Of a stretch of 64,000 nucleotides of DNA, positions 3,013 to 61,825 are shown one piece after another. Location: the NCBI GenBank assembly GCA_040902515.1, contig JBBDXB010000006.1, forward strand, positions 574,017 through 638,016. Direction: 5' to 3'. This stretch comes from Patescibacteria group bacterium (GTDB lineage: Bacteria; Patescibacteriota; SICC01). The notes beneath the pieces were generated by a model. That model had not been told where the DNA came from, did not search any database, and saw only the letters and a program-made list of their open reading frames with translations. Each line of letters begins with the position of its first letter. Positions within the stretch are counted from its first letter, which is position 1. A program made the translations under genes and the position numbers.

Positions 3013-4096
3013 ATGGAGCAGGAACTCCAGGAACGAATCGACAGCCTGGCGAAACGCTTTGCCCAGGTGAGGGAGTTTCTTTGACCTCGCCGGCAAAGAG
3101 ACCGAGCTAGCCGATCTCAAGAAACAGTCCGAGCGTGAGGACATCTGGCACGACCAGGAAGAGGCCCGGGCGGTGATGCAGCGGCTCAACGAGCTCGCCG
3201 AGCAGGTCGGGTTCTGGCAGCGATTCGAGCATGACCTCACCGACCTGCGGGAACTGCTGGGACTGTCCGGACAGGATGACAAGGCGGTGCGGGAGATCGC
3301 CACGAACCTGGGTGAGCTCGAACGCACGTTCACGCAACATGAATCGGCGGCGCTGCTCTCCGGCGAACACGACGCACGCCCGGCTCACGTGACGATCCAA
3401 GCCGGCGCGGGCGGGACCGACGCCCAGGACTGGGCGCACATGCTGGAACGGATGTACCTCCGGTTCGCGGAACGCCGCGGTTGGCGGACGGAGGTCGAGG
3501 AGCGTTCGGCGGGGGAGGAGGCCGGCATCAAGAGCGTGACGTTGCGGGTGGACGGCCCGTCGGCGTACGGGTACCTTCGGGGGGAATCGGGTGTCCATCG
3601 GCTCGTGCGGCAGTCGCCGTTCAACGCCAAGAGCCTCCGGCAGACCTCGTTCGCCCGGGTGGAGGTGCTTCCGGACCTGCCGTCACATGCCGTCGAGCTG
3701 GACGAGAAGGATCTGCGGATCGACACCTACCGAGCCTCCGGTGCCGGTGGCCAGCACGTGAACAAGACCGATTCGGCGGTTCGGATCACCCATCTGCCCA
3801 CCGGCCTGATCGCCCAATGCCAAAGCGAACGCTCCCAGGCGCAGAACAAGGAGGCGACGATGAAGATCCTCTACGGGAAACTCCTGGCGTTGGCCGAGAA
3901 GCAGCAGAAGGCGGATCTCCGGAAACTCGAGACCAGCGATACGGCGGCATGGGGAAACCAGATCCGCTCGTACGTCCTGCACCCCTACAAACAGGTGAAA
4001 GACCTCCGTACGCGTGTCGAACGGCCGGACCCGGACGCCGTGCTCGAAGGCGACCTCGACGACTTCGTGGAGGCGGAACTCCGGTTACCCCGCTAG
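3013..4096 (+). CDS. prfB: Peptide chain release factor 2, expressed via programmed +1 ribosomal frameshift (frame 0: 3013-3084 ending at in-frame TGA; +1 frame: 3083-4096)
   Basis: Frame 0 MEQELQERIDSLAKRFAQVREFL* ends at CTT TGA C, preceded by internal SD-like AGGGAG. This is the canonical RF2 autoregulatory frameshift site. Downstream frame carries SPF (RQSPFN) and GGQ (SGAGGQHVNKT) motifs. Confidence 0.9.
3070..3088 (+). promoter_or_regulatory. prfB +1 frameshift recoding site (AGGGAG-TTT-CTT-TGA-C)
   Basis: Internal Shine-Dalgarno-like AGGGAG 3 nt upstream of the CUU UGA C slippery/stop context, as in the E. coli prfB recoding site. Confidence 0.85.
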
Positions 4097-4471
4097 CAGG
4101 GCGGCGGCTTTGCCGACCACCTCGCTGGGCGTGAAGTTGGACTTGAGCAGGTAGTCGGCGGCACCGAGCGCCATTCCGCGGTCGATGTAGTCCTGGTCGC
4201 CGACGTTCGAAAGCAGGACGACCTGCACGTCCTTCGTTTCCGCATCCTGCTTCAATTCCTCGAGCACTTCGATGCCGCTCTTCTTCGGCATCATGATGTC
4301 GAGCAGGACGAGATCCGGGCCATGCTCACGGACCAGGGAGATTCCCTCGTCGCCGTCCAGCGCGTGGTGGATGTCATACCCCTCGCGTTGGAACTTTTGG
4401 ACATACATGTCCGCCAGGACGGAGTCATCTTCGATTAGGACGATTGTCTTTTTGTCTGTCATCGATTTCAT
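4085..4471 (-). CDS. Stand-alone CheY-like response regulator receiver domain protein (128 aa)
   Basis: MKSMTDKKTIVLIEDD...LVLLDIMMPKKSG...LLSNVGD...LLKS with phospho-acceptor Asp context (LLDIMMP), T/S and K residues. The ORF track's longer ORF is trimmed to the internal ATG that begins the receiver domain. Confidence 0.75.
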   Translation of the reverse strand: MKSMTDKKTIVLIEDDSVLADMYVQKFQREGYDIHHALDGDEGISLVREHGPDLVLLDIMMPKKSGIEVLEELKQDAETKDVQVVLLSNVGDQDYIDRGMALGAADYLLKSNFTPSEVVGKAAALLAG

Positions 4472-4516: not shown

Positions 4517-5992
4517 ATGGTTAAGCAATTTATGGACACCACGATCATTGGTCTCGGGCTCCTGCTGGCGATCACAGCCATCGTCGTACTGACCGTGCGG
4601 ATCCGGGCGTTGGCCCGGCAGGTCCGTTCCCGGGAGCTCGCGGTCAAGCGGGACCTCGGAAGAATCCGACAGATCGACCGAATGCTCCTGGCGAACCTGT
4701 CCCTCGGATACATCGCCCAAGAAGTGGCGAACGTCTTCGCCGACCACCGGGCCGTGCTCGGCGGTGCCGTCCAGCGGGCCAACCGCGACGGTACGCTCGA
4801 GGTACTGGCCGTCTCGGAGGAACTCAAGCGGATGGGAAACCGGGGGCTCGGCGTGCTGGCGCACAAGGTGCAGAGCGGCATCGAGCTGGAACGCAGCGGC
4901 TCCCTGATCGTCCGGGCCATCAACCAGCGGCAGATCATGGTGGGCGAACGGCTGGGTGACGTGGACGTGCCCGCGCTTACCCCCGGACAGGCCGGCAAGA
5001 TCCAGAAGCGTCTGGGCATCCGGGGCGTGGCGATTTATCCGGTGATGGCCAACGAGCGGGTCTACGGCGCGGTGACGTACTACCTGCGATCCCCATACGA
5101 GAGCCTGGGAGAGCGGGACAAGGAAACGCTCCAGGCGATGACCGACGGCGTGGCTGTCGCGATGGTGAACGCCAGCCTGCTCACGGAGATCGATGCGGTG
5201 AACCAGCGGCTGACCCAGGCCAACGCCGGTTTGAAACGGGCGGACGAGACCAAGGATGAGTTCGTCTCGATCGCCTCGCACCAGCTCCGCGGACCGCTCA
5301 CGGCGATCCGCGGCTACCTGGCGATGCTCGAGGATGGTGACTTCGGTGCGATTCCTGACCGCCAGCGTCCCGTCGTGGAGCAGATCTCCGAAAGCACGAA
5401 CGAGGTAATCAACATCCTGAACGACATGCTTTCCCTCTCGCGGATCAATGCCCGGCGCTTCGAGCTGACCCCCAGTCCCGTGCGGCTGGAGGACGTGGCC
5501 CGCGACGTCACCCGGGAATTCGAGTCGTTGGCCAAGAAGAAAGGACTGAAGCTCATCCTGGAGCTGCCGGACCAGACGATCGGCCAACTGAATCTCGACG
5601 GTCTCCGCATCCGCCAGGTCATCGTGAACTTCGTGGACAACGCGATCAAATACACGCAGAAGGGAACGGTGCGGGTCTCGATCGCCCAAGAAGGCGACGA
5701 AGCGGTCCTTCGTGTCCGGGATAGCGGTATCGGTATCTCGGCGGAAGACCGGCACAAGATGTTCACCAAGTTCTTCCGGGCGGATAACGCCCGGAACGTC
5801 CTGGCGTCCGGTACCGGCCTGGGCCTGTTCGTGGCCCGGCGGATCGTGGAGGCGCATGGCGGAAGCGTCATCCTGGAAAGCATTCTCGGCAAGGGAAGTA
5901 CGTTCGGGTTCCGCCTGCCGCTTCCCGCGGTACGCGGCGGCCACGGCGCCGCGTACCGTCGGTCTGCCCGGACCCCGGCCGTCGCGAGCTGA
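4517..5992 (+). CDS. Sensor histidine kinase (TM anchor, GAF-like sensor, HisKA, HATPase_c)
   Basis: TM helix IIGLGLLLAITAIVVLTV; H-box SIASHQLRGPLTAIRGYLAML; N box VNFVDNAIKYT; G1 DSGIGI; G2 GTGLGL. Start assigned to the ATG at 4517 (MVKQF) because the 4478 start would abut the divergent RR start. Confidence 0.8.
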   Translation: MVKQFMDTTIIGLGLLLAITAIVVLTVRIRALARQVRSRELAVKRDLGRIRQIDRMLLANLSLGYIAQEVANVFADHRAVLGGAVQRANRDGTLEVLAVSEELKRMGNRGLGVLAHKVQSGIELERSGSLIVRAINQRQIMVGERLGDVDVPALTPGQAGKIQKRLGIRGVAIYPVMANERVYGAVTYYLRSPYESLGERDKETLQAMTDGVAVAMVNASLLTEIDAVNQRLTQANAGLKRADETKDEFVSIASHQLRGPLTAIRGYLAMLEDGDFGAIPDRQRPVVEQISESTNEVINILNDMLSLSRINARRFELTPSPVRLEDVARDVTREFESLAKKKGLKLILELPDQTIGQLNLDGLRIRQVIVNFVDNAIKYTQKGTVRVSIAQEGDEAVLRVRDSGIGISAEDRHKMFTKFFRADNARNVLASGTGLGLFVARRIVEAHGGSVILESILGKGSTFGFRLPLPAVRGGHGAAYRRSARTPAVAS

Positions 5993-9499: not shown

Positions 9500-9553
9500 G
9501 CCTTACAGGATAGCTTATCCGGAACCATTCTCGTGAGCGGAAGTGTGCGGTAG

Positions 9554-10975
<1,422 letters not shown>

Positions 10976-44232: not shown

Positions 44233-44688
44233 ATGGCGTGGCCACGTGGCAGCAGGGCAGAAGGGGCGGGGATCGGATTTCCCTTGGATGAAATCGAAGC
44301 CATCGAACGGCGAACGGACGAGTCCGCCAAGATCCTGGACGCCAACATCGCGTTCGCCAGGCATAAGACCGGCGAGACGTTGGATGAAGACGACAGGCAG
44401 GCGTTAGAGTACCTGCAGGCTGCACTGACCGAAATCCGGCAGGATGCCGGCTCTGATCCGGTGCATATGACAGAACCGCGGAAGGGTTTTGTTTCGGCAG
44501 TGAGGGGTACCGTCCGGCGGGAGGCAGACGGTGATGCACGGAGCGCGCTCCTTGAGCGGCTGTCCGATACTACCGGCGCCGTGCTGGCCGATCAGGAGGT
44601 CAGGGCGGTCGAGGTCAGCCATGCTCAACGATTCCTCGTGCGTGTCGGCGAATTCAATCATGAACGGCTTGTCCGGTCGCGCGGTTAG
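44233..44688 (+). CDS. Hypothetical protein (151 aa)
   Basis: ORF beginning 3 nt after the GT2 stop; no motif recognised. Confidence 0.4.
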   Translation: MAWPRGSRAEGAGIGFPLDEIEAIERRTDESAKILDANIAFARHKTGETLDEDDRQALEYLQAALTEIRQDAGSDPVHMTEPRKGFVSAVRGTVRREADGDARSALLERLSDTTGAVLADQEVRAVEVSHAQRFLVRVGEFNHERLVRSRG

Positions 44689-44703
44689 ACGTACCGTAGA
44701 GTC

Positions 44704-45015
44704 ATGGCATTCGACAAGATGAAGCAGGCCAAGGAGCTCAACGAGTTCCGGAAGCAGGCTCAGAAGATCCAAAAGGAGCTCCGTGACACCCTGATCGAGG
44801 TAACGGAGGCCGAGGGCAAGGTGAAAGTCGTGTTCACCGGCGAGCAGAAGCTCGAGGAAGTGGCAATCGACGAATCGCTGCTCGAGAAGGGCAACAAGAA
44901 GGACCTCGAGAACCACCTGAAGAGCGCGGTCAGCCAGGCGATCAAGCAGTCGCAGCAGGTCGCGGCCCAGAAGATGCAATCCATCACCGGCGGCATGGGC
45001 CTGCCGGGGATGTAG
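44704..45015 (+). CDS. ybaB: Nucleoid-associated protein YbaB/EbfC
   Basis: 103 aa; MKQAKELNEFRKQAQKIQKEL...GGMGLPGM typical of the YbaB family. Confidence 0.85.
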   Translation: MAFDKMKQAKELNEFRKQAQKIQKELRDTLIEVTEAEGKVKVVFTGEQKLEEVAIDESLLEKGNKKDLENHLKSAVSQAIKQSQQVAAQKMQSITGGMGLPGM

Positions 45016-50730: not shown

Positions 50731-50804
50731 TCGGGGATCGTCTAATGGTAGGACGCCAGGTTTTGGTCCTGGAAATCGGGGTTCGAATCCCTGTCCCCGA
50801 GCCA
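50731..50804 (+). tRNA. tRNA-Gln (anticodon TTG) with encoded CCA
   Basis: Acceptor stem tcgggga/tccccga (U1-A72), anticodon stem ccagg/cctgg with loop uuUUGgu, T-loop ggttcgaatcc, discriminator G then CCA. Confidence 0.8.
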
Positions 50805-50821
50805 TGCATACCGAACGCGCC

Positions 50822-51301
50822 ATGCCCGAGAAGAAACTCATCGTAGTCTCGTTCTTCGAGGACCTGGAGCCGGGGTACCGGTTTCCGGCCGGTGACTGGC
50901 CGGTACATCTGACGTTGCTCCTCCCGTTCGGCATCGAAGAAACATCGGTCAGTGACCTCGAAGCGAGGCTCGCGGATGTCTTCGCGCGGCAGGATCCGGT
51001 CGAAGTCGTATGCGAAGAAGCGGTCCAGTTCGGCCCGCAAGGGAATACCCCCGTTACCACCGTCCGTCGCAGCGCCGAGCTGCAGTCCCTCCACGATGCG
51101 TTGCTGGAGCTCATCGACGAACGTGGCGCCTCGTATGATCCGCGATGGTCGGGCGGGGAATACCGTCCCCACGTGACCCGTCAAGCCCGCGGCGCGATGG
51201 AGCCGGGAGAATCCGCGGAACTGCGCTCAGCTTCTTTGCTTGATTACGAGGAGACTACACGGACCATTCGGCGGACGTACCCGTTCGGTGCGGGTTCCTG
51301 A
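50822..51301 (+). CDS. 2H phosphoesterase superfamily protein (LigT / 2'-5' RNA ligase-like)
   Basis: Two H-x-T-x motifs (PVHLTLL and RPHVTRQ) at the expected spacing; starts 18 nt after the tRNA-Gln CCA. Confidence 0.6.
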   Translation: MPEKKLIVVSFFEDLEPGYRFPAGDWPVHLTLLLPFGIEETSVSDLEARLADVFARQDPVEVVCEEAVQFGPQGNTPVTTVRRSAELQSLHDALLELIDERGASYDPRWSGGEYRPHVTRQARGAMEPGESAELRSASLLDYEETTRTIRRTYPFGAGS

Positions 51302-51315
51302 CGTCTGTAACAGTT

Positions 51316-51343
51316 TTGATACACACCTTAACCAAGGTACAAT
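51316..51343 (+). promoter_or_regulatory. Promoter TTGATA-N16-TACAAT driving the structured leader of paralog 1
   Basis: ttgata 51316-51321, 16-nt spacer, tacaat 51338-51343. Confidence 0.55.
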
Positions 51344-51349
51344 CTAACG

Positions 51350-51497
51350 TTCATTAACAAATCGCTACTTGCGGCCGTAGCGTTGAGGATTCGAGTTTCG
51401 TTTCTTCACCGCTACGGCTAGTACAGCGTGGTATCCCATCAACGATGGTGAATCTGGGGCCCGATCGGGTGAGGGATTTGCCGGAGAGGAGCCAGCA
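51350..51497 (+). ncRNA. Candidate cis-regulatory structured 5' leader (copy 1): stem GCCGUAGCG...CGCUACGGC followed by conserved UAGUACAGCGUGG, a second hairpin and a G-rich SD
   Basis: Homologous to the leader at 59991-60144 (shared gcggccgtagcg ... cgctacggctag-a-agcgtgg), with a compensatory U-G change in the stem of copy 2. Confidence 0.45.
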
Positions 51498-52145
51498 ATG
51501 GCTAGGAAGGACCCGTCAGATATCGTGAGCGGAGCGGGGATGCTGACCAGCATCTTCACCAAGCTCGACAAGGCCGTGACCGCGGCCGGAGGCAGGCCCA
51601 AGGACATCCACCGGCTTGCCACCGACGAGGGTGACGCGCTGCTCACGCAGTTCGCCGAGCTGCTCGTGGTCAAGCAGGCCGGGGACAAGTACGTGATCAC
51701 CGTCAACTACGGCGAGCAGCTCAAGACGCTGATCGTCGACGGCGGTTACAACTGGGTCAACGACTACTACGAGGGCCAGACCTGGGACGACTGGAAACAG
51801 CAGGACGGAGTGACCCCTGTAATGTTCCCGTCCTGTCGCACGGTCGAGACTGAGGCCGTCGTCGTCCATCTCGACCGCTACGCCGAGACCGGCGAGGTGC
51901 TGGTGGAGCTCGACTTTCGGGGTCTCCGGCCCGCCGACGTAGCGGAGCTCTTGAGCTTCGGAGTCGCACACCCTGAGGTCCAGCGCGAGTTCCGGATCAT
52001 CGAGCTCGGCTCGATCTTGGGGGACCCGTATGGCAGCCGCTACGTGGCGTCTCTGTGGAGCGACTCCGGCCGGCGCTACCTCGACCTCTACTGGTACGAC
52101 GACCGGTGGGCTCCGGGCTGCCGGTTCCTCGCCTTCGGCAAGTAG
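51498..52145 (+). CDS. Hypothetical protein, paralog 1 (215 aa) of the protein at 60145-60804
   Basis: Shared features with paralog 2: MAR(K/R)...GAAG...AV..GG N-terminus, VTV(N/D)Y, GLRPA(D/N)(V/M)AEL, aromatic-rich C-terminus. Confidence 0.6.
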   Translation: MARKDPSDIVSGAGMLTSIFTKLDKAVTAAGGRPKDIHRLATDEGDALLTQFAELLVVKQAGDKYVITVNYGEQLKTLIVDGGYNWVNDYYEGQTWDDWKQQDGVTPVMFPSCRTVETEAVVVHLDRYAETGEVLVELDFRGLRPADVAELLSFGVAHPEVQREFRIIELGSILGDPYGSRYVASLWSDSGRRYLDLYWYDDRWAPGCRFLAFGK

Positions 52146-52203
52146 CCGCACTTGGGCCTTTGGGCGTTTGGCACTTCGTGCCCCTGCCCCTTGGACCCTC
52201 CGC

Positions 52204-52235
52204 ATTTTGACCTGCCCGGCCTCGGTGCCGGGCAG
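52204..52235 (+). terminator. Hairpin with perfect 12-bp stem (gacctgcccggc / gccgggcaggtc) after paralog 1
   Basis: Read from sequence; no strong U-tract, so may be a processing or stability hairpin rather than an intrinsic terminator. Confidence 0.45.
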
Positions 52236-52318
52236 GTCACCTCCGGATGCAGACAGACTCGTCGATTGTATTCAGAAACCCTGGATCTTGCCCGAATCTC
52301 TGTTAGCACACCGGCACC

Positions 52319-52365
52319 GAAGCGCTCACGAAAACACCCCGTTTTCACCCGAGCGCTTCTTTTAA
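52319..52365 (+). terminator. Rho-independent terminator (aagcgctc ... gagcgctt + cttttaatt)
   Basis: 8-bp stem enclosing a nested hairpin, followed by a T-run. Confidence 0.6.
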
Positions 52366-52451
52366 TTGGACGTATCAAGCGAGAGGGCTTTTATGTTGAG
52401 CCAATGGTCAAGGAATCCTGATTTCCGCGCCATTTCTGCTTAAATAGGACC

Positions 52452-53009
52452 GTGCCGAAAGAAACACTGATCGCCCTGGACCGGACCACCAGCTACCGGG
52501 TCCGGACCCATCCCCGGGCCAAGCACGTCCGGATCACCATCCAGCCGGGCGGTGACGTGGTCGTGACCAAGCCGCGGCGCGTCACGCTGTGGGCCGTCCG
52601 CCGGTTCGTTAAGGCGAAACGTGGTTGGATTACCACGGCCCGGGCCCGGCGGCAGGAGAGTCCGGTGCCGGAAATCCTTGAGCCTTCACGCGAGCACTAC
52701 CTGGCGCACCGCAAGGCTGCCCGCGATCTCCTCACTACCCGCGCCGACCACTGGGCCGCCCATCTCGGTTACCGCTACCGGCGGCTGTCCGTCCGGCGCG
52801 TGACCTCGCGGTGGGGGAGCTGCTCGCGCGGCGGCGGCCTCAGCTTCAACTACAAGCTCCTGTTCCTGCCGGCGCGGCTCGTCGATTACGTGGTCGTGCA
52901 CGAGCTGTGCCACCTCCGTGAACTCAACCACTCGCCGCGGTTCTGGGCGCTGGTCGGAGAGGCGCTTCCCGACTACGAGCGGCTCCGAGTCGAGCTGCGG
53001 AAACTGTAG
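52452..53009 (+). CDS. YgjP/DUF45 (M48-like) zinc metallo-hydrolase family protein
   Basis: C-terminal HELCHLRELNHSPRFW (HExxH + downstream) characteristic of DUF45/YgjP; N-terminal segments typical of the family (RITIQPGGDVVVTKPRR). Confidence 0.7.
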   Translation: MPKETLIALDRTTSYRVRTHPRAKHVRITIQPGGDVVVTKPRRVTLWAVRRFVKAKRGWITTARARRQESPVPEILEPSREHYLAHRKAARDLLTTRADHWAAHLGYRYRRLSVRRVTSRWGSCSRGGGLSFNYKLLFLPARLVDYVVVHELCHLRELNHSPRFWALVGEALPDYERLRVELRKL

Positions 53010-57087: not shown

Positions 57088-57104
57088 CCTGTTTTTCATA
57101 AAAA

Positions 57105-57151
57105 ACACCCCCTGACTCTTGTCCTTGCGGACGTTGGTGAGCCAGGGGGTG
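57105..57151. repeat. Hairpin repeat copy 1 (acaccccctgactc-ttgtccttgcggacgttggt-gagccagggggtg); likely terminator for the - strand J-domain gene (A-run upstream = U-run on - strand)
   Basis: Near-identical (44/47) to copy 2 at 59340-59386; 13-bp stem with one G-U. Confidence 0.7.
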
Positions 57152-57155
57152 GTGG

Positions 57156-58364
57156 TTATGGGTGGGGATGTATGCCGAAGTCGGGGGCGTAGGATGTGTA
57201 CGATCCTCCGGCAATACGGCCGACCACCGAATCGGACCGTGACGGCGTGTAGTACTCGAGCGTATTTTCCTCCACGCCCAGGCCTTCATGGGGCGGCCAC
57301 TCGATGTTGAGGTAGACATCGGCCCCACGACGTGGGAACCGCAACCGTCCATTGGCAGCTGCGACATCCTTGAGCCTGTCACCGACGCCCATACCGTAAC
57401 GGTCACGGTACTGACGGCTGGTGGTCGAATACGCCGAAACATAGAGCCGGTTCCTGTTCTTACTGACTCCTTCGAGCTTGTCGCCCTGGACGAACACGAC
57501 AGCGACCAGTCCTCCGTCGGTCTCATAGAATGCAGACCTAGATTTCCCCAATCTGTCGAATGGGTATGGGTATGCCTGGGTATCCCTCGGCAGCCCCCAA
57601 ATCGCGTTCACCCGGTCATAGTCCATATGTACCTTGATCGGTCCGATCCGGTGAGGCGTAACGAGGAACTCGGGAGGTGGAGCACTTTGCCGGGCCTGCT
57701 GGATTACCGCCTGCCGTCGCTGCTGCCCCTCGGTCAGTTCAGGTGTCCCGGAATCGCCTCCGGACACCTGGAATCCGAACCAGATCAGGAATATCATTCC
57801 TGTGATAAACCCGAGTTGGCCCCACTTGATGCGGCTCGGCCGCTGCCGGCCCGGTACCGGACGCGCCTGCGTCGGCCGGGGTTGTCTGGGCCGGGGTTGT
57901 CTCGGTCGTCCAGAGGGCCCCGGACCCGGCTGTCGCCGAGCCTGCTGCCGCTGTCGAGCCTGCTGCCGCTGTCGCGGTGGCGGCGCCTGGCCCGGCCGCG
58001 GCGGGGTGGTTCCGCCGGGCGTCCCCGTTCCGCCGAACCGCTGGTAGGCCGCCTCGTGCTCATCGTCCCATTCGGGATCGTCCGGCGGGTCCGGCTTCGG
58101 CGTGGCGTGGCCCGGACCCGGCTGCCCGCCGTTCGGCGTGGCTCCGGTTCCGGCATCTTGCGCGGCGTCGTACTGCTTGCGCCGCTCCGGGTCGGACAGG
58201 ACGGCGTACGCCTCCTGCACGGCCTTGAAGCGCTCCTCGGCGAACTCGTCGCCGGGGTTCGCGTCGGGGTGGTCGCGGCGTACCGCGGCGCGGTACGCCT
58301 TCTTGATCGCTTCCTCCGTCGCATCCTTCGGAACACCGAGGATGCCGTAGTAGCTGCTGGCCAT
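57156..58364 (-). CDS. J-domain (DnaJ-like) membrane protein with Pro-rich linker, single TM and C-terminal domain of unknown function
   Basis: N-terminal J domain [34 protein letters not shown] (HPD present); Pro/Gln/Arg-rich region; [15 protein letters not shown]; ~170-aa C-terminal domain. Confidence 0.7.
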
Positions 58365-58522
58365 GGGACCGTACCTCCTCGGTATCTGGTTTTCCGGATT
58401 GTTAAGGGCCGACCTGTCGGCTGGTTATTGTATGCGAGGGGTGGATGCTTGGCAATTTTCCCCAGCCTACGCTACAATCACTTGCCATACTGGCACCTTT
58501 ACAATCCGACAGAAAGGCACGC

Positions 58523-59320
58523 ATGAAAACGCAACGTGACATCGCGCGGCTGCTCGTGGACTCCAGCGCCCAAGGAACGCTTAGCGCCGACTCGCTTCGG
58601 GCGCTGCAGGACATCCCGGGCGTTCAGCATGAGGTCGGGCGGTCGCTCGGGGACTCCGTTCCCGAAGACCTCAACGATCTGCTCCTTCTCTCCATCCTGG
58701 TCGACGACTCGGGCTCGATCGCCTGGGCGAAGAACACCCGGGCGGTCCAGAACGGGCACAACCGGGTCGTCCAGGTGGTCCTGGAGGCGGGTATCGCCCG
58801 GAACGTGCTGCTCCAGACGCGGTTCCTGAACGGCAAGGTCGTGAACCCATATGTGCCGCTGCTCAAGGCCGACCCGCTCGACAGCGGCAACTACGGTGAG
58901 CACGAGTTCGGCGGGACGCCGCTGTACGAGCAATCGGTGGTCCTGCTCGGGTCCGTCGCCGCCAAGACCCGCGAGCTCGAGGCGAAGGGCAAGTCCGCCC
59001 GGAGCATCACGCTGATCATCACCGACGGTGACGACCAGCATTCAGGAAAGATCACCGCCGGGCACGTCGCCTGGTTGGCGAACGACCTCAGGCGCAGCAA
59101 GCGGCACATCGTCGCCGGCATGGGCGTCGAGGATGGCAGCACCAACTTCCGGAGGATCTTCCGGGAGATGGGCATCCCCGACAAGTGGCACCTGACCCCG
59201 AACGCCGATCCGTCGGCGATCATCCAGGCGTTCAAGGATTTCGGAGAGGCGGCTGCCAAGGCCAGCATCGACCCGGCATCCTTCGAGCGTCTCGCGTTGG
59301 GACCCGGCTTCTCGCAGTGA
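58523..59320 (+). CDS. von Willebrand factor A (vWA) domain protein
   Basis: MIDAS LVDDSGSI (DxSxS) and downstream ITLIITDGDDQ threonine/aspartate motif. Track ORF begins at 58445; ATG 58523 preferred (TACAAT boxes upstream). Confidence 0.65.
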   Translation: MKTQRDIARLLVDSSAQGTLSADSLRALQDIPGVQHEVGRSLGDSVPEDLNDLLLLSILVDDSGSIAWAKNTRAVQNGHNRVVQVVLEAGIARNVLLQTRFLNGKVVNPYVPLLKADPLDSGNYGEHEFGGTPLYEQSVVLLGSVAAKTRELEAKGKSARSITLIITDGDDQHSGKITAGHVAWLANDLRRSKRHIVAGMGVEDGSTNFRRIFREMGIPDKWHLTPNADPSAIIQAFKDFGEAAAKASIDPASFERLALGPGFSQ

Positions 59321-59339
59321 GAACCGACCCATACGTACT

Positions 59340-59390
59340 ACACCCCCTGACTCTTGTCCTTACGGACGTTAGTGAGTCAGGGGGTGTTTT
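59340..59390. repeat. Hairpin repeat copy 2 (acaccccctgactc-ttgtccttacggacgttagt-gagtcagggggtg + tttt); intrinsic terminator for the vWA gene
   Basis: Perfect 13-bp stem followed by a T-run; homologous to copy 1. Confidence 0.75.
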
Positions 59391-59407
59391 CGAGGTACGA
59401 TAGGTCC

Positions 59408-59935
59408 ATGGCAACTAACCGGAGTCCCTGGCAGCGCATCACCGGCTGGTACGACCGCCACTACCAGCTCGCGGTCACCGTTTCGGCGGCATTGTTCCTG
59501 ACCCAGCTCGTGCACCTCTACTGGCTGACGGCGCACGTGGTCGCGTTCCGGCTGGTCGAGCAGAGCTACTGGAGTTTGGCGCCGATCTGGCAAACCGCGC
59601 TTTCCGCCGCCGATTATCTGGAGATTCCCGCGCTGGTCGCCACCAGCATTCTCTACGTGATGATCCTGCGCCGCCGTTTCTCGTGGATACGGCTCCTGAT
59701 CCTGATCGGCATCAACCTGCAGTGGCTCCACATCGCCTGGATCACCGACGAGTTCGTGGTGTCGAGTCTCGGGGTCGGCGAGGAGGGGACGGCCCACTGG
59801 CCGGTCTGGCTGGCCTGGGCCGCGATCGTGATCGACTACCTGGAGCTGCCAGCGATTTTCGACACGACGCGGGAGTCCATCCGGCAGTTCCGGAAACGGG
59901 GCCTGCGCGGCTTGCGCGAGGCGTTGAAGGAATAA
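59408..59935 (+). CDS. Hypothetical polytopic membrane protein (175 aa)
   Basis: 4-5 predicted hydrophobic helices (LAVTVSAALFLTQLVHLYWL, LVATSILYVMIL, LLILIGINLQWL, VWLAWAAIVIDYL). Confidence 0.5.
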   Translation: MATNRSPWQRITGWYDRHYQLAVTVSAALFLTQLVHLYWLTAHVVAFRLVEQSYWSLAPIWQTALSAADYLEIPALVATSILYVMILRRRFSWIRLLILIGINLQWLHIAWITDEFVVSSLGVGEEGTAHWPVWLAWAAIVIDYLELPAIFDTTRESIRQFRKRGLRGLREALKE

Positions 59936-59990
59936 GTCACCGGCATGGCGACGTGTTTGATAATTATTGTGGTTGTGGTACTTTTAGTGG

Positions 59991-60144
59991 TTCCTTAACA
60001 GTTGCTGACAGGTAAGCGGCCGTAGCGCCAAGGGTGTGATATCTCATTCCCGTGGCGCTGCGGCTAGCAGAGCGTGGCAGATAAGCCCTAGGCCTGGATG
60101 CCGTTTAGTCCAGGTAGGGGGACATCGCTACAAGGAGGTACCAC
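59991..60144 (+). ncRNA. Candidate cis-regulatory structured 5' leader (copy 2), downstream of promoter TTGATA-N16-TACTTT (59957-59984)
   Basis: Contains gcggccgtagcg ... cgctgcggctagcagagcgtggca, a cctgga...tccagg hairpin and an aaggagg SD; homologous to 51350-51497. Confidence 0.45.
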
Positions 60145-60804
60145 ATGGCTCGCCGTAAGGCAGAGTTCGTCGGAGCGGCCGGGACGGTCCTTGAGATCAT
60201 CAAGGCACTTTCCCAGGCGGTGCTCGACAGCGGGGGTTCGGAGGAGGACCTACGCCGGATCATCAGGGAGGAGCCGCTGCGTAACCGGATCGCCGGAATG
60301 CTGGTCGATTGGTCAAGCTCCCGGTACCTGGTCACGGTGGATTATCGCCGTGACTTGGGGCACCTCGCTCCCGACGGTTACGCGGGCTGGGCGGGCTTCT
60401 GGTCCGACTGGACCGCGCTGGACGGCAGTCCGGTGCATCAGGAGAACAAGGTAGTCATCACCGATGTCGTGCTGGTAAAGCTCGAGCTTTCCGACGATGA
60501 TCGCGATGACTTCGACCGACCCAGGCCTGATACTGCGAAGGTGCTCAAGCAGCTCGACCGGCAGGGCTTGCGCCCCGCCAACATGGCGGAGTTGTTCGCG
60601 TTCCTCAAGGAGTATTCCGACGTGCTGGAGAAGGGTCCGTTCGAGGGCGCCGTTGCACTGGGAGCGACTCGGAATGGGGATGTTGCCCTGTTCTGGGACA
60701 AAGCGTCCCCCGATGGTCATGGTTACTTCGATGGCGTTCGCCCTGATGATGCCCACTGGCCCGAGCACGTCGGCTTCCTCGCCGTTCCCGTCGAGCAGTC
60801 CTAG
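60145..60804 (+). CDS. Hypothetical protein, paralog 2 (219 aa) of the protein at 51498-52145
   Basis: See paralog 1; strong SD aaggagg upstream. Confidence 0.6.
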   Translation: MARRKAEFVGAAGTVLEIIKALSQAVLDSGGSEEDLRRIIREEPLRNRIAGMLVDWSSSRYLVTVDYRRDLGHLAPDGYAGWAGFWSDWTALDGSPVHQENKVVITDVVLVKLELSDDDRDDFDRPRPDTAKVLKQLDRQGLRPANMAELFAFLKEYSDVLEKGPFEGAVALGATRNGDVALFWDKASPDGHGYFDGVRPDDAHWPEHVGFLAVPVEQS

Positions 60805-60849
60805 TAGCTACGATGCCGATCGCTGTATCAAAGGAGGTGAAACAGTTTG

Positions 60850-60963
60850 ATGACCGGAGCCTACGGTCCCGACTCGCAAGATGACGCCTCGCCCCTATCG
60901 GGAGCCGTCGTGGTCGGGATCATCATCGGAATCATCGTGATCGTCTGGATCGTCACCGGCTGA
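60850..60963 (+). CDS. Small (37 aa) hydrophobic single-TM peptide with strong RBS
   Basis: aaggaggtg SD ~9 nt upstream of ATG; MTGAYGPDSQDDASPLSGAVVVGIIIGIIVIVWIVTG; not in the ORF track. Confidence 0.4.
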   Translation: MTGAYGPDSQDDASPLSGAVVVGIIIGIIVIVWIVTG

Positions 60964-61156
60964 CCCACGATGTCCGCACGGACGTACATAACTTCACGCG
61001 CTTGGATTCGTCCACCAAGACTGACTCGAAAGAGACCCAGACCCAGCGTGAAGTGCCCCACTGAGCCGATCAGTCACTGGTCGTTTCGGCAAGGCAGTAA
61101 GCGCCGACAGCCGTCGGTTACCAAAGCGGTGACCGGCGCCGTAGAATGAGGCAGTC

Positions 61157-61825
61157 ATGGCAACTCGCCGCGCACCCCGCTTTGAACGATTCATCGAATC
61201 GAAGCCGATCCTCTTCCTGCTGAGCGTCTTCAACTGGCCCCGGCGGACGATCCGGCGGCTCTACGCCTGGGTCGTGGGATGGGCGGAAGGCCGCCAGGCG
61301 CAACGCGCCCTCGGCGGTATCGCGTTCGCGGAAAGCTCGTTTTTCCCGATTCCGCCGGATCCGCTCCTGATCGCGATGACCACGGCAAAGCCCCGTCGCT
61401 ACCTCCGGTTCGCCACCATCTGCACGGTGGCCAGCGTCATCGGCGGTATCTTCGGGTACCTGATCGGCGTGCTCGCGTTCGAGGCGGTCGGGCAGCCGAT
61501 CATCGACACCTACCACCTCCAGGAGGACTTCGACGCGCTCGGCCAGCGGTACGCCGACAACGCGGCCGTGGCGATCTTCGCCGCCGCCTTCAGTCCGATC
61601 CCGTACAAGCTGATCACCATCTCCGCCGGCGCGTTCCACATCAACTTCCTGCTGTTCCTACTCGTCTCGATCCTCGGCCGGGGCGGTCGCTTCTTCCTCG
61701 TCGCCGCGCTGATGCACCACTTCGGCAAGCGCTACAAGGACACGATCGAAAAGTACATCGACCTACTGTCATTGGCGTTCGTGCTGCTCCTGGTCCTCGG
61801 CGTGCTGGCGGTAAAGCTGCTGTAA
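61157..61825 (+). CDS. DedA/YqaA (VTT domain) family membrane protein
   Basis: AESSFFPIPPDPLLIAM signature, multiple TM helices, GYLIGVLAFE. Confidence 0.7.
   Translation: MATRRAPRFERFIESKPILFLLSVFNWPRRTIRRLYAWVVGWAEGRQAQRALGGIAFAESSFFPIPPDPLLIAMTTAKPRRYLRFATICTVASVIGGIFGYLIGVLAFEAVGQPIIDTYHLQEDFDALGQRYADNAAVAIFAAAFSPIPYKLITISAGAFHINFLLFLLVSILGRGGRFFLVAALMHHFGKRYKDTIEKYIDLLSLAFVLLLVLGVLAVKLL

Follow-up and report, generated by a model that had tools for sequence, protein, structure and literature searches.

What is the short hydrophobic open reading frame (ORF) that follows the second copy of a structured leader and its gene in a Saccharibacteria-like genome: a gene in its own right, a part of the module in front of it, a toxin, or an accident of sequence? 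The locus lies in a stretch of 64,000 nucleotides (hereafter the window; GC content 63%) from a Patescibacteria group bacterium (GenBank assembly GCA_040902515.1, contig JBBDXB010000006.1, positions 574,017 to 638,016 of the forward strand), whose closest public relative is labelled 'uncultured Candidatus Saccharibacteria'. An earlier note, made from the sequence alone, had placed a 37-codon ORF 45 nt behind copy 2 and no comparable peptide behind copy 1. Both observations hold: the ORF is present at 60850-60963 and translates as reported, and no hydrophobic small ORF follows copy 1. The ORF is very probably a real gene. Our preferred reading, held with moderate confidence, is that it is translated and that its product is a small single-pass membrane protein acting as an accessory partner through a GxxxG helix. 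The peptide appears to stand outside the conserved leader-paralog module, travelling instead with the downstream DedA gene and an 80-nt block in between that hardly varies among the genomes compared. The immediate features are as follows.

60145-60804, plus strand: paralog 2, the gene of copy 2 (219 aa), encoding a helical domain at the N-terminus and a C-type-lectin-like (CLec) domain at the C-terminus
60805-60849, plus strand: spacer of 45 nt between paralog 2 and the small ORF, containing the Shine-Dalgarno (SD) sequence
60830-60840, plus strand: SD of the small ORF, AAAGGAGGTGA, an 11-nt match to the canonical anti-SD
60847, plus strand: alternative in-frame TTG start of the small ORF
60850-60963, plus strand: small ORF, 37 codons and a TGA stop, beginning 45 nt past the TAG of paralog 2

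The product, MTGAYGPDSQDDASPLSGAVVVGIIIGIIVIVWIVTG, begins with 18 residues that form an acidic tail (three Asp, neither Lys nor Arg) and continues into a C-terminal transmembrane (TM) helix with G23xxxG27. It ends in WIVTG, contains no Lys or Arg anywhere and reaches a 17-residue hydropathy of 3.3. GC content at third codon positions (GC3) is 0.81, compared with 0.73-0.91 in the genes of the window. Because most genes in the window show no SD but instead a -10-like box just ahead of the start codon, the 11-nt SD of the small ORF stands out; SD-led genes (such as both paralogs and the small ORF) are the exception here, and AAGGAGGTG occurs only once in the 64 kb, both strands counted. The earlier note had described a strong SD at ideal spacing. 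The strength stands, but the spacing was overstated: the GGAGG core lies 12 nt from the ATG, as against 6 nt for paralog 2, and 9 nt from the in-frame TTG at 60847. The SD is predicted to be accessible, with an unpaired probability of 0.63 in the window and 0.45 in the relative L005 (introduced below), and no conserved helix sequesters it in the folds of either sequence. The spacer at 60805-60849 contains neither a terminator-like hairpin nor a promoter-like site. When we scanned both strands for ORFs of 15-70 codons that are preceded by an SD-like site and contain a 17-residue segment of hydropathy 2.4 or more, the small ORF was the sole return in 128 kb (both strands); with the SD requirement dropped, there were four ATG-started hydrophobic ORFs in the same 128 kb. 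A gene caller also marks it as a 37-aa gene in L005 and in three Logan assemblies from the same population as the window (L002-L004).

The genomes of this lineage in public databases number only three, counted as the 90% identity cluster of the DedA protein. L005 (GCA_964476895.1) is the assembly whose contig bears the best homologue of paralog 2. Its locus is syntenic with the window (BipA, DnaJ-domain protein, 265-aa gene, 175-aa gene, paralog, 37-aa gene, DedA), and the flanks share ~92% nucleotide identity. The small ORF of L005, encoding MTGAYGPDPQDDASPHGGAIAVGIIIGILVVILIITS, keeps the SD, the ATG, the stop and the length of 37 codons, and has no indel. Its SD, TAAGGAGGTGA, is 9 nt from the ATG, and the TTG is absent there. 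The spacer after the paralog measures 45 nt in the window and 48 nt in L005, the two genes being in frame with each other in either genome; upstream of the SD just ~58% of it is identical, yet the SD itself is intact. Identity between the two peptides is 26/37, rising to 14/15 over the first residues, and the changes in the TM helix are I/V/L/A exchanges or W to L, all of them hydrophobic. The earlier note had named conservation in relatives as a check, and at the level of the reading frame the small ORF passes it in L005.

Over the small ORF, the window and L005 share 76-82% nucleotide identity. Its dS of 0.34 matches that of two neighbouring genes (0.37 and 0.21), so that the ORF has diverged at a normal silent rate, yet has stayed open. 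The dN/dS is 0.53, as against 0.035 and 0.23 in the same two neighbours, and the differences fall 9/4/8 on the three codon positions. We also placed the observed number of substitutions at random in 100,000 simulated trials. The TM hydropathy was retained as in L005 in 0.9% of these, and in 0.5% if stops and polar residues were also disallowed. Taken together, these comparisons suggest a selective constraint that is weak overall yet specific. With fair confidence, judged from these patterns, we consider the small ORF to be translated into a small membrane protein; the earlier note's reading of it as a small membrane peptide is borne out by the conservation in L005.

What lies behind the ORF is conserved far more strictly, as the following features and a third genome, L007, make apparent.

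60980-61059, plus strand: almost invariant 80-nt block, starting 16 nt past the small-ORF stop and predicted to form a three-way junction (in L005 at 4205-4284; in L007 at ~4733-4812, minus strand)
61067-61089, plus strand: hairpin CGAUCAG-UCA-CUGGUCG followed by UUUCGG, read from the sequence and missed by the terminator scan
61118-61825, plus strand: gene for a DedA/YqaA-family (VTT domain) membrane protein with its promoter (TTACCA 61118-61123, TAGAAT 61142-61147, ATG 61157)

The predicted fold of the 80-nt block comprises P1 (ACUUCACGC/GCGUGAAGU), a hairpin CUUGG-AUUCGUCCA-CCAAG and a second hairpin, whose loop is GAAA, with a z-score of -2.0 for the fold. The window and L005 are exactly identical over the block, and L007 has one change, GAAA to GCAA (both GNRA loops), while the neighbouring genes differ by 8-15% among the three genomes. 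Rfam has no match for the block. The ORF that runs across it (60970-61149) has a GC3 of ~0.5-0.6 by our own count and zero synonymous changes, which argues that the block is non-coding. Read-through of the small-ORF TGA into this in-frame ORF was considered and rejected: L007 has a TAA and enters the block in another frame, and the downstream ORF shows atypical codon usage and no synonymous variation. A scan of GTDB genomes returned the block in L005/L006 and L007 only, a pattern scan of metagenomes gave two chance matches within unrelated coding regions, and a viral scan gave none. The three independent Logan contigs L002-L004 have different starts and a common end at window position 61008, within the block, which suggests an assembly-graph branch at 61009 arising from a co-occurring variant or junction.

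L007 is close to the window on either side of the locus (BipA 91.5%, DedA 85% identical). It lacks window positions 57088-60966 and has 1.1 kb of other sequence instead, with an unrelated 139-aa ORF and no gene of the paralog family. On this comparison, close relatives differ in a segment whose right-hand limit appears to be the 80-nt block. Within the replacement sequence, L007 nevertheless has an SD-preceded hydrophobic ORF of 19 codons, MLGWVIGAIVVIAILIVVL, whose TAA stop lies 12 nt before the block. Since the background of hydrophobic ORFs is only ~1 per 30-60 kb, the chance of one in that 100-nt slot is ~0.002-0.003, and a coincidence seems unlikely. The peptides of the window, L005 and L007 all have GxxxG in the helix. 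The order of mini-ORF, conserved structure and DedA is thus retained in three genomes despite a differing upstream gene.

The earlier note had seen the peptide as a feature by which two copies of one module differ. Treating it as a variant feature of that module finds no support in the comparison. Among eight other loci of the paralog family, the small ORF is present only at the L005 orthologue; copy 1 and six further loci in unrelated Patescibacteria (L017-L021, L023) are without it. As these loci lack the ORF and L007 has a mini-ORF without a paralog, the peptide is probably tied to the 80-nt block and not to the paralog. We also asked whether the small ORF might be a C-terminal anchor that has split off from the paralog. 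The two are in frame, yet 2-3 stops lie between them and C-terminal TM segments were found in none of the family members, so this was rejected.

How might such a protein work? The small ORF would be transcribed as the distal cistron of an mRNA from the copy-2 leader promoter, since no terminator-like or promoter-like site separates it from paralog 2, and would be translated independently from its own very strong, accessible SD. The peptide would then insert into the membrane, where its GxxxG helix may bind and modulate a larger membrane protein in the manner of KdpF, CydX, AcrZ and MgrB. The candidate partner is the DedA/YqaA-family protein encoded directly downstream. Like other small accessory membrane proteins (KdpF 29 aa, CydX 37 aa, AcrZ 49 aa, MgrB 47 aa, MgtS 31 aa), which act by helix-helix contact, the peptide has fewer than 50 residues and one TM helix, and such proteins are often unannotated and encoded beside or inside operons of larger proteins; its GxxxG suits that mode of action. 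Unlike them, it has no positive charge, shows no sequence relation to any of them and has only a putative partner. Its ORF follows a soluble CLec gene, and a promoter and a structured spacer precede DedA. The acidic tail followed by one hydrophobic helix also recalls the major coat proteins of filamentous phages (Pf3, M13 g8p); YidC and the membrane potential drive the insertion of these proteins, which leaves the N-terminus outside. However, the peptide has no basic C-terminal DNA-binding tail, and there are no phage genes nearby and no match in phage collections.

Several points weigh against reading the ORF as a gene for an accessory membrane protein. PGAP left it uncalled. No relative of the peptide was found among 5.8 billion proteins (the query, padded to 40 residues, returned only itself), nor in JGI metagenomes or viral contigs, nor by tblastn in phages and plasmids. 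There are only two orthologous copies, plus one that matches by position only: homology of the L007 19-mer to the 37-mer is not demonstrable, as blastn homology begins only at 60967. A dN/dS of 0.53 on 111 sites is, taken alone, indistinguishable from neutral, with 13/21 differences being non-synonymous. As for DedA, it is a candidate partner by virtue of its position alone. Its gene has a promoter of its own, a 190-nt structured spacer lies between it and the small ORF, and at distant DedA orthologues (70-74% identity, L010-L016) both the small ORF and the 80-nt block are absent. Pfam, NCBIfam and PHROG likewise gave no match for the peptide, even at E <= 10. The small ORF is so far known solely from one narrow Saccharibacteria-like lineage, and is a plausible new orphan among small membrane proteins.

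Among the other explanations, one is that the small ORF is untranslated, an accident within a conserved 3' untranslated region (UTR) or DNA element. In favour of this, the nucleotide conservation of the sequence beside it has non-coding causes, its dN/dS is not significantly below 1 and the searched databases hold no relative at the protein level. Yet the ORF region, at 76-82% identity, behaves unlike the almost invariant block next to it. Its changes preserve hydrophobicity (p < 0.01) and fall 9/4/8 on the codon positions, its GC3 is gene-like where that of the ORF across the block is not, and an 11-nt SD and an ATG have been kept in a spacer of which only 58% is otherwise identical. We consider an accident unlikely. 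The toxin suggested by the earlier note would be a type I toxin-like peptide that damages or depolarises the membrane, with the 80-nt block as a regulatory 3' UTR or as the target or gene of an antisense antitoxin RNA. Known type I toxins (Ibs, Fst, TisB, Hok, BsrG, AapA1) do resemble the peptide in size, in their single hydrophobic helix, in sitting in a variable region and in adjoining conserved RNA sequence; 37 aa is a size like that of Fst, TisB and BsrG, and the 19-aa peptide of L007 is like Ibs. The extreme nucleotide conservation 3' of the ORF is what two overlapping RNA functions would produce, and the position of the locus is variable and island-like. However, we identified no small-RNA gene: scanning and manual reading gave no minus-strand promoter-like site in 59300-61300, nor any that would separate the ORF from paralog 2. 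Folding predicts an unsequestered SD; the ORF follows an ordinary gene as its distal cistron and exists in a single copy in the 64 kb; and the peptide has no basic or polar terminus and no homology to these toxins. The GAAA to GCAA change, both being GNRA loops, points to structure in a plus-strand RNA. Pfam, NCBIfam and PADLOC-type searches matched no toxin family, and PADLOC found nothing for the paralogs or neighbours. The toxin part of the earlier proposal gains no support from this, and we regard it as a minor possibility, if the foremost of the rivals.

Two further explanations look outwards from the ORF, one downstream and one upstream. Translation of the small ORF could control folding of the 80-nt block and thereby read-through into, or interference with, DedA, the peptide perhaps being an insertion sensor like MifM or SecM. 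Here the preserved order of mini-ORF, structure and DedA behind differing upstream genes is suggestive, as is the start of the structure 12-16 nt past the stop codon, at the limit of what a terminating ribosome covers. The arrest or monitoring peptides MifM (for YidC2) and SecM (for SecA) offer a likeness too, a small TM ORF followed by RNA structure and a membrane-protein gene. Yet the peptide is much shorter than these and has no arrest motif, and at 37 aa (19 aa in L007) its TM helix would still be within the ribosome at termination, which leaves no room for co-translational sensing of insertion. Pairing of the ORF with the structure as an alternative fold was not found. DedA also has its own leaderless promoter, with a conserved -10 box 7-9 nt before the ATG that recurs in the distant orthologues (L010-L016), where synteny is lost, so that transcription from upstream is not needed. 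Such a leader ORF seems improbable. The other explanation makes the peptide an in-trans membrane anchor that tethers or presents paralog 2, a variable protein of the type diversified by diversity-generating retroelements (DGRs). Paralog 2 and the small ORF are probably co-transcribed and keep the same frame across spacers of 45 and 48 nt, 0/150 family members have a C-terminal TM segment, and the DGR targets of Patescibacteria typically lack a TM segment or other recognisable domain, their membrane attachment being left open (PMC8144416). Against an anchor, the ORF is missing at copy 1 and six further family loci, and the mini-ORF of L007 is there without any family gene, behind an unrelated 139-aa protein. 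A co-evolving pair is also hard to square with a peptide tail that hardly varies and a paralog in which the window and L005 differ by 59%. We give an anchor very little credence.

A more speculative idea combines the elements on either side of the stop codon. The mini-ORF and the 80-nt three-way-junction RNA may form an undescribed two-part unit, a membrane peptide with a structured RNA, sitting before DedA while the DNA upstream is swapped between relatives. We rate this as a long shot; if true, such a unit could represent either a novel type of toxin/RNA pair or, in Saccharibacteria, a landmark for recombination and regulation. For the accessory membrane protein that we prefer, the interest is more immediate. 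Small membrane proteins are systematically missed in annotation, this one having been skipped by PGAP, and those of Patescibacteria are, to our knowledge, almost unstudied; in genomes so reduced, each retained gene is informative. The surroundings are of wider interest than the peptide itself: a 5'-UTR motif, a fast-diverging CLec gene between conserved flanks, and the 80-nt block. The peptide adjoins a fast-diverging protein of the C-type-lectin fold and DGR-target type, and such targets in Patescibacteria have been described as having no recognisable membrane attachment (Roux et al., 2021).

The 3' end of the transcript of paralog 2 and the small ORF has a weak candidate in the hairpin at 61067-61089, one pair of which is kept in L005 through a two-sided change. 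The DedA mRNA, which would start from the promoter beyond it, appears to be essentially leaderless.

The module in front of the small ORF occurs twice in the window, and a hidden Markov model (HMM) of the paralog family finds copies 1 and 2 as its only two members there. Its parts, other than paralog 2, are the following.

51316-52145, plus strand: copy 1 module, with its promoter, a leader with P1 from 51371 and a 215-aa gene at 51498-52145
51345-51497, plus strand: copy-1 leader
59957-59984, plus strand: copy-2 promoter, with -35 TTGATA 59957-59962, a 16-nt spacer and -10 TACTTT 59979-59984
59991-60144, plus strand: copy-2 leader, 154 nt, with P1 at 60016-60068, P2 within a CCCU/AGGG outer stem at 60074-60131, and the SD AAGGAGGTA at 60132-60140

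The two proteins are 34% identical. A profile built from both retrieves 2239 protein clusters at E <= 0.001, mostly of ~200 aa; Pfam has no match among proteins of the family, and an alignment of 48 sequences has no conserved stretch of 7-10 residues. Paralog 2 itself has neither a signal peptide nor a TM segment. Outside the lineage, bAvd and a reverse transcriptase (RT) adjoin 2/7 sampled members (L017, L021/L022). In L017 (family member P0004), the last 127 nt of the gene has an 84% identical copy between the gene and Avd; 13/20 mismatches fall at adenines of the template copy, which encodes Asn (AAC/AAT) at variable positions. By these signatures, the L017 repeats are a DGR variable/template repeat pair. 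The family is accordingly one of Patescibacteria DGR-type variable proteins, which agrees with the described lack of a recognisable TM or other domain in such targets (PMC8144416).

Paralog 2 shares a C-terminal C-type-lectin fold with known DGR variable proteins (Treponema TvpA, Bordetella phage Mtd, clade-2 targets of Patescibacteria), but its C-terminus is atypical (GFLAVPVEQS), and the 64-kb window contains no DGR reverse transcriptase or Avd (tblastn with L017 queries) and no template repeat of the 3' end of copy 1 or copy 2. Paralog 2 shares 41% amino acid and ~55% nucleotide identity (60148-60847) with its syntenic L005 orthologue, between flanks at ~92%. The divergence spans the whole CLec domain, beyond the C-terminal variable region. 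DGR mutagenesis as the cause of the 41% identity was rejected on this ground and for want of a template repeat or RT in the window; the pattern is better accounted for by allelic replacement or by strong diversifying selection than by the action of a DGR alone. DGR targets carry a hairpin that assists retrohoming at a position just after the stop. A GC-rich hairpin lies soon after the stop of copy 1 (~52202-52231) and of the DGR-linked L017 member (~3260-3290); at copy 2, the small ORF occupies that position.

Transcription of copy 2 is predicted to start at ~59991. Its promoter was found by reading (the consensus scan did not list it), is retained in L005 and shares its layout with that of copy 1 (TTGATA 51316-51321, TACAAT 51338-51343). 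A 17-codon ORF, MATCLIIIVVVVLLVVP, at 59945-59998 overlaps the copy-2 promoter; it has no SD, consists of T-rich promoter sequence and is most likely a chance ORF. The hairpin base GCGGCCGTAGCG...CGGCTAGNANAGCGTGG is exactly conserved in both leaders, and each half occurs without mismatch at these two sites only. The copy-2 leader folds at -82.2 kcal/mol (z = -6.7). The leader motif is also found upstream of family genes in L017, L018, L019, L020, L021 and L023, and 9/9 family leaders fold as P1, then P2 in a CCYU/GAGGG outer stem, then the SD. P1 shows compensatory changes at 12/20 pairs in seven sequences, a score reached by 0/500 shuffles, with low values in slid controls. Rfam 15 has no match for the leader, the only hits at gathering score in the window being two tRNAs; at E <= 10 there were only chance-level matches in 59900-61200 and 51180-52460, and nothing in eight related loci. 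Judged by its covariation, the leader is a real RNA motif and a candidate new cis-acting one. Covarying and absent from Rfam, it appears to be shared throughout a family of over 2000 protein clusters.

Four observations concern the rest of the window. Many genes lack an SD and have, 6-10 nt ahead of the start codon, a -10-like box such as TAGAAT, TAGACT or TACACT (e.g. 61142-61157, 9549-9566, 44686-44704), which suggests that leaderless or near-leaderless mRNAs are widespread across it. The copy-1 module is preceded, at a distance of ~500 nt, by a tRNA-Gln(TTG) gene (50731-50804). Two copies of a 47-nt palindromic hairpin, ACACCCCCTGACTC...GAGTCAGGGGGTG, which are 94% identical (57105-57151 and 59340-59386), flank the DnaJ-domain gene and the 265-aa gene; the pair may be bidirectional terminators or a REP/MITE-like repeat. 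The DnaJ-domain gene itself (minus strand, ~57156-58364, 402 aa) is in part highly divergent from L005: its J-domain end and the neighbouring genes are >90% identical, while 57148-57997, the C-terminal two thirds of the protein, has ~35-60% nucleotide identity.

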